Shown here: piece by piece, positions 14,641-55,236 of the stretch
Numbering within the stretch: the first letter of the stretch is position 1
Layout of the letters: every line of letters starts with the position of its first letter
Source of the DNA: Candidatus Wolfebacteria bacterium GW2011_GWB1_47_1
Lineage (GTDB): Bacteria; Patescibacteriota; Minisyncoccia; UBA6257; UBA9933
Assembly: GCA_001029635.1 (NCBI GenBank)
Contig: CP011209.1
Location: 618,435-682,434, forward strand
Direction: 5' to 3'
DNA length: 64,000 nucleotides
Notes under the pieces: generated by a model
Seen by the model: only the letters and a program-made list of their open reading frames with translations
Databases searched by the model: none
Told to the model about the DNA's origin: nothing
Position numbers and translations under genes: made by a program

Positions 14641-14934
14641 ATGGCACATACCAAAGCCAAGGGGTCTACTAAAAATGGCCGAGACTCCCAGGCACAACGA
14701 TTAGGAGTAAAGCGACAGCACGGCCAGACTGTCGGCGCAGGTGAGATCTTGATCCGCCAGCGTGGAACTAAATATTTGCCGGGTCTCAATGTTGCCCGCG
14801 CAAAGGATGACACCTTGTACGCGATGATCCCGGGAACCCTTCAGTTCTTGTCACGCACCAAGATTAAGTTTGACGGAAACAAGCGAAGCGTAAAAGTTTT
14901 GACCATTGTTCCGAAGACTGTTGTCGAGGCATAA
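14641..14934 (+). CDS. rpmA: 50S ribosomal protein L27
   Basis: [24 protein letters not shown]... is the canonical L27 N-terminus. Confidence 0.95.
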
Positions 14935-14980: not shown

Positions 14981-15490
14981 GTGTCTTCATTTTCTTAAAA
15001 AACGTTTTCTGTACTTTTTCTGGAAAAAGTACCAAAAAGCCTGCGAGCGAAATAAAAAAGCGGAATGCCTTTAAAAATTCCTTACGAAGTCCGAGGGTGC
15101 GCCCGTTTATCAACGGGTCCCCGCACCTCGGATTCTGTGGGAATTTTTTGCGTTCATTCTGGTCGCTTTTTTACAGCTCGCGCCCGGATGTGAGGAGGTT
15201 TTCTTTGTCTATTTAATCCTTGTTTTTATATGATCGCAACATCGAATACGAGAATTTTTCTTCGTTCATTTATACTTTATTTTTACAACTCGCATTGGAA
15301 TGCGGGGAGATTTTCTTCGCCTATCTTCACGCCGTTTTTACATGCTCGCAGGTGCGAATGCGATTCAAGAATTTTTTTTGCCTTCATTGCGCAGCAGATT
15401 TTATTTTTCGTGTGCGCGTTGTCATCCGGCCCTTTATTTTTCATGCCGCTTGCCACGTGGAACATAATCATTTTTTTTATGTTGCTACCG
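14981..15490. repeat. Gene-free tract: degenerate tandem repeats (period 55-61 bp, about 6 units from 15142) preceded by three hairpins
   Basis: The motif TTTT(C)TTCG(Y)TCATT recurs at about 15142, 15198, 15253, 15309 and 15370. TTTTTACAnCTCGC(A) recurs at 15171, 15226, 15283 and 15338, each followed by a GAATGCG-like segment. Confidence 0.75.
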
Positions 15491-15555: not shown

Positions 15556-16215
15556 TTACGATGACATCGGCTGAATTTCTTCTCGTGAGGAATCCGGTCG
15601 CCTTCCGTACTTTACGTAGAGAAACACAAGCAACCGCGCAACGAGGGCCACCCCCAGCACCTCCATTAAGAAGGTAAGGCCACTTACGGTCGCCTGTTCT
15701 CCTAGAAACGATAAGCCACTGATAAGAACATACCCAAAGACCGCGCAGGTGGTGGCTCCGCATAACATGATCGATTTCAGGGTTTCGCAGAATATCGAAA
15801 ATAGCAGGAACACGGGCATGGAAATCAGGATTAACATGGTGATGAACCACTCCGGGCGATCCGATCGCTGCGGCTCCTTGAGCTTCGGGATGAAACGCCC
15901 ATCTTGATAGCTGTAGGTGATTTCGGTTATTTCCGTTATCTGCCTGAGCGGTAATCCGAATTGTAGATCTATCGCAACTTCTTTGCCGGTCCAGCTTGCT
16001 CCTTTTCCGAATTGCTTCAGTCGGTAGGCTGTTGCCAGAGGCAGGTCCTTTGGAACATCGTTGATCATCTCGATCACTCTTTCGCCTTGGCTCACCACTA
16101 CGGCGTTTTTTACCCGCTGAAAGGACAATTCCTGATCAGCCGCAGCTAAGGCAAAACCTGAAACAGGTATACTTACCAGCAAGATTGCCATCAAAATTAT
16201 TGTTCTCATCGCCAT
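15556..16215 (-). CDS. Hypothetical membrane protein (signal peptide, extracytoplasmic domain, 3-4 C-terminal TM segments)
   Basis: GGGAGGGG SD. Hydrophobic N-terminus and C-terminal TM stretches. No family recognised. Confidence 0.6.
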   Translation of the reverse strand: MAMRTIILMAILLVSIPVSGFALAAADQELSFQRVKNAVVVSQGERVIEMINDVPKDLPLATAYRLKQFGKGASWTGKEVAIDLQFGLPLRQITEITEITYSYQDGRFIPKLKEPQRSDRPEWFITMLILISMPVFLLFSIFCETLKSIMLCGATTCAVFGYVLISGLSFLGEQATVSGLTFLMEVLGVALVARLLVFLYVKYGRRPDSSREEIQPMSS

Positions 16216-16312
16216 CCCCTCCCTATCCTTTTAGTATGGTGTACTGAAAACAAAATTGCACATACCTGTTATTTTGTCAATCTCCAGCTTACGGAATGTG
16301 CTCGAGGTATTT

Positions 16313-16342
16313 TTGACTTTTTGTTGGATAGGCTTATATACT
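16313..16342 (+). promoter_or_regulatory. Sigma70-like promoter of the two-peptide unit
   Basis: TTGACT (16313-16318) -N18- TATACT (16337-16342). Confidence 0.55.
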
Positions 16343-16390
16343 GGGGGTAGATTCTTTATCATTCGTCATTCTTAGTGAGGAGGTTTGAAA

Positions 16391-16534
16391 ATGTTTTCGA
16401 TACCGGGTGGCTTGGCAGAGCGATTGGGATTCCCTTCGTTCAATATCAATCTTGACCTCGATGATATCGCTGACGTCAGCGAGGAAGCAGCTGCTCACGT
16501 GTCAGTGAATCCCCGATTCGCCAGAAGGAGGTAG
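16391..16534 (+). CDS. Candidate 47-aa acidic peptide (MFSIPGGLAERLGFPSFNINLDLDDIADVSEEAAAHVSVNPRFARRR)
   Basis: GAGGAGG lies 7 nt upstream of the ATG, downstream of a strong promoter. Not in the ORF track (<60 aa). Confidence 0.5.
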   Translation: MFSIPGGLAERLGFPSFNINLDLDDIADVSEEAAAHVSVNPRFARRR

Positions 16535-16540
16535 TCTGAT

Positions 16541-16696
16541 ATGCTTATGCGAATTAAGCGTGGAGGAAAGATGGTTTTTATCCGCACTCAGCCTGCTCCG
16601 AGGACAAAGTGTTCGTGCGGTAAATTGGGGTGTTGCTGTGGCGCTGTTGATCTCTCGGCGCGTCCCTGGACAGGATATGGGTATCCCCATAGGTAA
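16541..16696 (+). CDS. Candidate 51-aa basic Cys-rich peptide (MLMRIKRGGKMVFIRTQPAPRTKCSCGKLGCCCGAVDLSARPWTGYGYPHR)
   Basis: AGGAGG lies 9 nt upstream of the ATG and overlaps the end of the preceding ORF. Same reading frame as 16391..16534, separated by TAG plus 2 codons. A terminator follows. Confidence 0.5.
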   Translation: MLMRIKRGGKMVFIRTQPAPRTKCSCGKLGCCCGAVDLSARPWTGYGYPHR

Positions 16697-16720
16697 GCCG
16701 CCGCATTACTTTTTATGACA

Positions 16721-16751
16721 AATGCCTCGCCGATACGGCGAGGCATTTTTT
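16721..16751. terminator. Hairpin terminator (atgcctcgcc gata cggcgaggcat + T7)
   Basis: Perfect 10-11 bp stem with a T-run on the plus strand. Lies between the peptide unit (+) and the rplI 3' end (-). Confidence 0.7.
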
Positions 16752-16756
16752 GTTGG

Positions 16757-17215
16757 CTATTTTTCTGGATTGAGTGTGACGGTTATCGTGCCGTTGATAC
16801 TGTGACCAAAGCTTATTTTTATTGCATGTGCGCCAAGTGTTTTGATCTGTTTTTCAAGATCTACTTTAATCACCGCATGCGCTTTTGCCAGAGGAGAAAG
16901 CTTCGCCTTGACCGCTTCCTCGATCTCGTGCTTGGTTACCGAGCCGAATACTTCCCCATTCTTTCCTACCTTTGTGATAAAGATGAATGCGTCATCGGCC
17001 AGTGTCTTTGCCAATGCATGCAACTCTGCTTCCAGTGTCTGTTGTTGTTTTGCCTTGCTTTCCTTCTGTACTTGCAAGATATGTGTTTCATGTCCTGTGG
17101 CAATCTTAACCAGCCCCTTTGGAATGAGCATATTTTTTGCGTGACCGTCGGAGACGTTTTTTACTTCTCCCTTTTTTCCTATACCCTTAATATCCTGCAA
17201 TAATATTACCTTCAT
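16757..17215 (-). CDS. rplI: 50S ribosomal protein L9
   Basis: [35 protein letters not shown] is the canonical L9 N-terminus. Confidence 0.95.
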
Positions 17216-55160: not shown

Positions 55161-55199
55161 TACTAGCACCTCCGTTCCTTGAATTAATCTACTAAAAAC

Positions 55200-55223
55200 A
55201 AAAATAGCACAAATGTGCTATTT
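55200..55223 (-). terminator. Hairpin terminator of the DoxX gene, embedded in the next promoter
   Basis: On the minus strand, TTGACA aaatagcac attt gtgctattt TTG: the hairpin occupies the spacer between TTGACA and a TATTTT -10-like element. Confidence 0.55.
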
Positions 55224-55236
55224 TGTCAATATATTT

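Follow-up and report, generated by a model that had tools for sequence, protein, structure and literature searches.

A small mRNA with its own promoter, whose conserved product is the 47-aa protein ORF A, probably accounts for the transcription unit between the genes for ribosomal proteins L27 and L9 in a Candidatus Wolfebacteria (CPR/Parcubacteria) genome. The segment downstream of ORF A, which contains a second open reading frame (ORF B), is specific to this species and most likely untranslated. The window, that is the whole 64,000-nt stretch of DNA analysed, matches contigs of one groundwater population, including GCA_003453235.1 and JGI samples 3300025013 and 3300025309, and positions 16216-16756 are 100% identical in all three. 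An initial annotation had placed a promoter, two ORFs, their Shine-Dalgarno sites and a terminator in this region, and each of them was found at the same coordinates (Table 1). It had also taken the region for a real but mostly unannotated small-protein transcription unit, a view that is borne out by the conservation of ORF A and by the purifying selection acting on it.

Table 1. Features of the transcription unit and its surroundings. Positions are those of the window unless another locus is named.
Feature	Position	Strand	Remarks
rpmA (L27)	14641-14934	+	one flank of the unit
Hairpin element	15040-15184	best on -	degenerate second copy near 15240-15400
Orphan predicted membrane protein, 217/219 aa	15556-16215	-	adjoins the unit
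Sigma-70-type promoter	16313-16342	+	TTGACT (16313-16318), 18-nt spacer, TATACT (16337-16342); consensus scan
Shine-Dalgarno GAGGAGG of ORF A	16377-16383	+	7 nt before ATG; read from sequence
ORF A, 47-aa acidic small protein, MFSIPGGLAERLGFPSFNINLDLDDIADVSEEAAAHVSVNPRFARRR	16391-16534	+	stop TAG 16532-16534; conserved gene
AGGAGG	16526-16531	+	made by the last Arg codons of ORF A (AGA-AGG-AGG), 9 nt before the ORF B ATG; read from sequence
3' segment without ortholog counterpart	16535-16710	+	upper bound; DNA alignment, local and global realignment
ORF B, 51 aa, basic	16541-16696	+	five Cys, motif CSCGKLGCCCG; species-specific segment, coding status unproven
Second GGAGG	16562-16566	+	4 nt before an in-frame ATG at 16571, inside ORF B; read from sequence
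Intrinsic terminator hairpin	16720-16748		13-bp perfect stem, then TTTTTT; scan
rplI (L9)	16757-17215	-	other flank, convergent with the unit
Hairpin element at other loci	L027 6311-6452; L029 2324-2497; L004 4059-4202; L009 8837-8980; L013/L014 1-94		

Related loci were reached by a synteny walk outward from the neighbouring S41 protease. The membrane protein that adjoins the unit was dropped as a synteny anchor because it is an orphan: no homolog outside its own species was found among 5.8 billion proteins, and no Pfam domain was found in it. Its codon usage is native (score +0.17). Across the related loci compared, ORF A gave only one strong tblastn match, at positions 10006-9860 of locus L009 (E 3.5e-17, 70% identity over 46 aa). 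L009 is GCA_003508115.1, from the species of GW2011_GWC2_39_22, and its protease is 76% identical to that of the window. The ortholog, MFVIPGGLAERLGFKDFSINLDTADLADVREEDAAVVITNPRMARKPE, is 48 aa long and occupies the same L27-L9 interval. Its public record is the hypothetical protein KKR12910.1, and there is a variant of it with the change K15T.

ORF A and its ortholog are 68-70% identical in amino acid sequence. They share the same ATG, have no indel before the last two codons and stop within one codon of each other. By the Nei-Gojobori method dN is 0.28 and dS is 1.63, giving the dN/dS on a homolog that had been suggested as a check, 0.17; the value comes from a single pair of 46 codons, one divergent ortholog species having been found in addition to the K15T variant. 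Differences at the three codon positions number 10, 11 and 25, so that the third position dominates, and, read in either of its other two frames, the alignment has an identity of only 33-36% and is interrupted by stops. For comparison, L9 of these two genomes is 68% identical with a dN of 0.21, against 0.28 for ORF A, and the divergence of ORF A is thus about equal to that of a ribosomal protein. A small-protein gene should keep its frame, start and approximate stop in a diverged relative and bear the mark of purifying selection, and this is what was found. Together with the conserved promoter, Shine-Dalgarno sequence and terminator described below, the low dN/dS, the third-position bias and the conserved start argue that ORF A is a real protein-coding gene under purifying selection, with its own promoter and terminator. 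It would have been kept by such selection since the two Wolfebacteria species diverged.

Codon usage gives a different impression. The codon score of ORF A is low (-0.02, the 2.7th percentile of real gene segments), and native codon usage is found in no frame within 16391-16693. These values would suit a non-coding RNA, or an intergenic spacer whose ORFs are chance features, as would the fold z of -2.9 for the whole transcript, most of which comes from the terminator. Such a reading is nevertheless highly improbable. The substitutions between ORF A and its ortholog are of the kind expected in a protein, and the start codon and the Shine-Dalgarno sequence are conserved. No Rfam family was matched at the gathering threshold anywhere in the window, and when matches in 16200-16800 were ranked by E-value only chance-level ones appeared, centred on the terminator. 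The ORF B segment has no unusual structure (fold z = +0.51), and ARAGORN detected no tRNA or tmRNA in the window. Because ORF A appears to be real and yet scores low, composition tests must be weak for ORFs of such length, which softens the case against ORF B presented below.

The promoter matches the consensus at 10/12 positions. Transcription would start from it near 16349, the predicted start, leaving a leader of about 41 nt that carries a strong Shine-Dalgarno sequence. In the L009 ortholog the promoter reads TTGACT-N18-TACAAT, and DNA alignment indicates that the -35 box, an upstream T-run and the N18 spacing are kept. The leader is partly conserved in the same alignment, and at the position matching the Shine-Dalgarno sequence the ortholog has GGAAGGAG. 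A motif census of the window found no Shine-Dalgarno motif in 39/45 long ORFs; many long ORFs have instead a TATAAT-like box directly (5-10 nt) before the ATG, an arrangement that looks like leaderless initiation. The strong Shine-Dalgarno sequence of ORF A is therefore unusual in the window, where most long ORFs are without one. Starts led by GGAGG belong mainly to small or orphan genes, of 61, 67, 82, 118, 144, 151, 165 and 217 aa, in addition to ORF A.

The transcript would end at the hairpin, 9 nt past the stop codon of rplI, a gene convergent with the unit, and from this position the hairpin probably serves as terminator on both strands. Its stem core, CCTCGCC...GGCGAGG, is related to the CCTTGCC...GGCGAGG of the L009 ortholog. 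Promoter, ORF A and terminator each exceed chance expectation, being conserved in a second species.

Two further observations concern the surroundings of the promoter and terminator. A 41-nt block that is 83% identical occurs at window positions 16242-16281 and 55190-55230 (- strand), in the upstream regions of two Shine-Dalgarno-led genes on the - strand, one encoding the orphan membrane protein of 217 aa and the other a DUF5680 protein of 165 aa. Within the block are TTGACA and the inverted repeat ACAAAAT...ATTTTGT. It is arranged back to back with the promoter of ORF A and may be a shared promoter or operator. At the other end of the unit, a 52-aa ORF (16588-16746, - strand) runs antisense to ORF B and begins inside the terminator hairpin. 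It is annotated as hypothetical in several records (AKM78396.1, KKU37095.1 and others; 19 contigs), and this annotation is probably an error. ORF A itself appears in a single MAG record, as a hypothetical protein (KKU74579.1).

Searches against known families gave ORF A no name. Pfam, NCBIfam, PADLOC, PHROGs and PDB returned no match for ORF A, its ortholog, ORF B or the readthrough fusion of the two ORFs, and a word-indexed search of the fusion against 5.8 billion proteins returned nothing. An exhaustive HMMER search of 1.84 billion cluster representatives recovered ORF A itself and two PUFA synthases for ORF A, and a low-complexity repeat protein for ORF B. A metagenome scan with the ORF A alignment found the L009 species again and nothing else, the same scan with the fusion found nothing, and viral, phage and plasmid scans were negative. 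No paralogs were found within the window.

The PUFA synthases led to a comparison with acyl carrier protein (ACP, PP-binding) domains. Residues 8-30 of ORF A resemble the loop that precedes the DSL motif in the tandem ACPs of PUFA synthases, with a HMMER E-value of 1e-4 that is summed over 5-6 repeats. In contrast to an ACP, ORF A is only half as long (47 aa compared with a domain of about 80 aa) and has no Pfam PP-binding match. An ACP identity was rejected: hhalign gave a probability of 8.9%, and the ortholog has Arg in place of the candidate Ser30. ORF A resembles lineage-restricted sORFs (<50 aa, often missed by annotation pipelines) in being short and having its own promoter, Shine-Dalgarno sequence and terminator, in its in-frame conservation under purifying selection between related species, and in that some assemblies have it as a called gene (KKU74579.1, KKR12910.1) while others miss it. 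It differs from them in belonging to no described family and in having two known carrier species.

No signal peptide or membrane segment was predicted in ORF A. AlphaFold2 run on the single sequence gave a pLDDT of 57.5, too low for a fold search. The 14 N-terminal residues (MF-IPGGLAERLGF) are invariant between the two species; an acidic core follows, and then a basic tail, NPR-x-AR. Because of the invariant N-terminus and the NPR-x-AR tail, we tentatively suggest that ORF A is most likely a small soluble protein that binds another macromolecule.

Between rpmA and rplI, the ORF A gene lies in an accessory island that varies among species. Across the species compared, whose flanking proteins are 73-80% identical, the L9-L27 interval is an insertion hot spot: its length varies between about 70 nt and 2.2 kb, and the orphan genes in it are unrelated. 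The L9 and L27 genes are adjacent in L011 and L030. An 81-aa ORF lies between them in L004 and a hairpin element in L029. A similar hairpin element follows L9 in L027, where the contig ends before L27, and unrelated genes follow L9 in L013. The L009 interval carries a 2.2-kb insert. Contigs of the four closest relatives (L005-L008, protease 79-82% identical) end in or just after the protease or L9 gene, which makes them uninformative on the ORF A/B locus. ORF A was found in 2 of at least 7 species compared at the locus, and it was not found in at least 5 other Wolfebacteria species, either at the locus or within the available contig. Since it is absent at the locus from these species, ORF A appears to be accessory and dispensable. 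The compared species form a star-like phylogeny, in which all protease identities are about 75-80%.

The hairpin element found at several of these loci is a long, imperfect structure of about 145-175 nt, of which several Wolfebacteria species have copies at variable sites between genes (Table 1). Its copies have fold z values of -3.8 to -10, and compensatory double changes are present in 9/50 consensus pairs. No Rfam family matched it. Gene callers place 60-72-aa ORFs on the copies, and some contigs start inside a copy. It may be a palindromic element of the REP/MITE type, or else a small RNA not yet described.

The relationship of ORF A to ORF B turns on the stop codon between them. As the initial annotation had noted, the two ORFs are in one frame with only TAG-TCT-GAT between them, and the AGGAGG of ORF B is built from Arg codons of ORF A; all of this can be read in the sequence. 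The unit is carried by 12 other same-species assemblies, in which ORF B is unchanged and ORF A differs by one synonymous SNP (16429 A>C). In a thirteenth, an assembly gap of Ns falls inside ORF B. Because the stretch is the same across these assemblies, assembly and sequencing error are excluded as the origin of the TAG. The thirteen assemblies are clonal and so carry no information on selection on ORF B.

In the L009 ortholog the stop is a TGA one codon later than that of ORF A, and the terminator follows about 45 nt on without an ORF B. The codons equivalent to the end of ORF A are CGA-AAG-CCT-GAA-TGA, and the AGGAGG is therefore missing. Compared with the ortholog, an extra 135-170 nt lies between stop and terminator in the window species, with ORF B inside it; the alignment gap itself is about 135 nt, and the short aligned islands around it are unreliable. 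No counterpart of ORF B was detected in L009 or in L016. Hence the frame conservation that had been looked for in homologs holds for ORF A and not for ORF B, and neither the TAG nor the Cys pattern is conserved, the ortholog having TGA and lacking ORF B altogether.

We considered whether ORFs A and B descend from one gene of about 100 aa that was cut by the TAG, leaving either a pseudogene or a fusion made by readthrough or recoding. The shared frame and the three codons between the ORFs suggest it, and TAG is the rarest stop in the window, ending 3/45 long ORFs. However, those other ORFs do end in it, Parcubacteria use the standard genetic code, and two ORFs placed in succession share a frame once in three times. 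No uninterrupted homolog spans both halves, and protein searches revealed no protein of about 100 aa that resembles the fusion. The ortholog, with 48 aa, ends one codon further on and is followed by its terminator, which indicates that the stop of ORF A is ancestral. The split gene and TAG readthrough were rejected on this ground, and we regard them as very unlikely. With coupled gene pairs and programmed readthrough systems the unit has in common a stop 6 nt from the next start, a shared frame and a Shine-Dalgarno sequence inside the end of the first ORF. It departs from them in that the arrangement is unique to one species and the stop marks where the protein ended ancestrally.

A two-gene operon, in which ORF A and ORF B are both translated and ORF B is coupled through the AGGAGG in the last Arg codons of ORF A, is a more serious alternative, though still an unlikely one. 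ORF B would then be a young, species-specific Cys-rich peptide with a metal-binding or redox role, or just a recently born gene. ORF B occupies the space from ORF A to the terminator, and two of its ATG codons, at 16541 and 16571, are preceded by AGGAGG and GGAGG at 9 and 4 nt, respectively. Elsewhere in the window, a census of GGAGG-ATG sites outside genes, each with 40 or more codons after it, yielded mostly ORFs with native codon scores (0.15-0.29), several of which are called as genes in public assemblies. Such sites before long ORFs thus tend to coincide with native codon usage.

ORF B itself does not follow this pattern. Its codon log-odds score is -0.20 (-0.34 from Met11), compared with +0.26 +/- 0.13 for real 50-codon segments and -0.12 +/- 0.15 for spurious ORFs. 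When the score was split, the signal came from amino-acid composition, which resembles that of out-of-frame ORFs and ranks at the 0.3rd percentile among real genes; the synonymous-codon score (-0.006) carries no information and does not count against ORF B, a point that leaves the operon some room. An open + frame of at least 51 codons arose in 30% of dinucleotide shuffles of the stretch from 16535, in the ORF B stretch all but one of the six frames stay open for at least 42 codons, and sharing a frame with ORF A is a 1-in-3 event. Above all, ORF B has no counterpart in the sole ortholog of the unit, and no homolog was found among 5.8 billion proteins, 1.84 billion cluster representatives or the metagenome, viral and plasmid scans. 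The frame-preserving homolog expected of a genuine small gene was therefore not seen for ORF B. The translational coupling proposed earlier has no comparative support, as both the AGGAGG and ORF B are missing in the ortholog. It is doubtful that ORF B is translated and functional, and it is neither a partner of ORF A nor the second half of a split gene.

The Cys cluster of ORF B and the acidic character of ORF A had raised the possibility of a precursor-like or metal-binding peptide pair. In a RiPP-type arrangement ORF A would be the leader and ORF B the Cys-rich core. The composition of ORF A is acidic, as in a leader, and includes an LDLDD motif; its FNINLDLD may resemble the FNLD box of lanthipeptide leaders, and ORF B supplies the CSCGKLGCCCG cluster. 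The resemblance to the leaders of class I lanthipeptides and thiopeptides (FNLD / LDLxDL) extends to an acidic N-terminal peptide with F-x-I-N-L-D and a Cys-rich ORF after it, but the motif of ORF A is not canonical. Leader and core would moreover be separate polypeptides with a stop codon between them, and the ortholog has the leader-like peptide without the supposed core. NCBIfam precursor models gave no match. In the 32 largest ORFs of the 64-kb window and in the precomputed calls within about 6 kb, Pfam identified neither a LanB, LanC, LanM or YcaO protein nor a radical-SAM enzyme; beyond this distance the screen covers the large ORFs. The earlier remark that no maturation enzyme is adjacent agrees with the Pfam calls for genes within about 6 kb. 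A RiPP precursor is accordingly given very little credence.

Metal binding fares no better. ORF B is similar to bacterial metallothioneins (SmtA/BmtA) in its size of about 50 aa and in having five Cys within 11 residues; it is unlike them in having fewer Cys, no His ligand pattern and a strongly basic composition. It matched neither a metallothionein nor any other family, even with Pfam and NCBIfam E-values of up to 1-10, and it has no relative in PDB. Since ORF B is also unconserved, the comparisons lend no support to a precursor or metal-binding pair. The same is true of a toxin/antidote pair, whose partnership would be unconserved and for which PADLOC and Pfam returned no match.

For the 3' segment, the interpretation that we prefer is an untranslated lineage-specific insertion, which is most likely, or at most a very young ORF. 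In this species alone, about 135-170 nt would have come to lie between the stop of ORF A and the terminator, with ORF B contained in it by chance. Less probable than the operon in general, though not negligible, is the specific case of ORF B as a gene at birth, in which the insertion into the 3' end of a conserved mRNA gained translation. The terminal Arg codons of ORF A (AGA-AGG-AGG) would then have provided a ready-made Shine-Dalgarno sequence, and the second GGAGG-ATG inside ORF B another start. If true, a new Cys-rich basic peptide would be co-expressed with ORF A in a streamlined CPR genome.

What first catches the eye in the unit is the Cys-rich peptide, the TAG in frame between the ORFs and the coupling that the sequence suggests, and none of these has comparative support. 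ORF B can nevertheless serve as a test case for the translation of a Shine-Dalgarno-preceded ORF in a 3' insertion, through the peptides TQPAPR, LGCCCGAVDLSAR and PWTGYGYPHR, of which the last two assume cleavage before Pro. The practical value of ORF A is modest: it is a candidate for peptide searches in Rifle aquifer metaproteomes (LGFPSFNINLDLDDIADVSEEAAAHVSVNPR). Public annotation can be corrected at this locus, where several records carry the 52-aa antisense ORF that overlaps the terminator instead of ORF A. ORF A is a new orphan small-protein gene of narrow distribution in a variable island. The finding is a modest one, and it adds one more verified small-protein gene, with homologs only in two Wolfebacteria species, to the poorly annotated CPR proteome.
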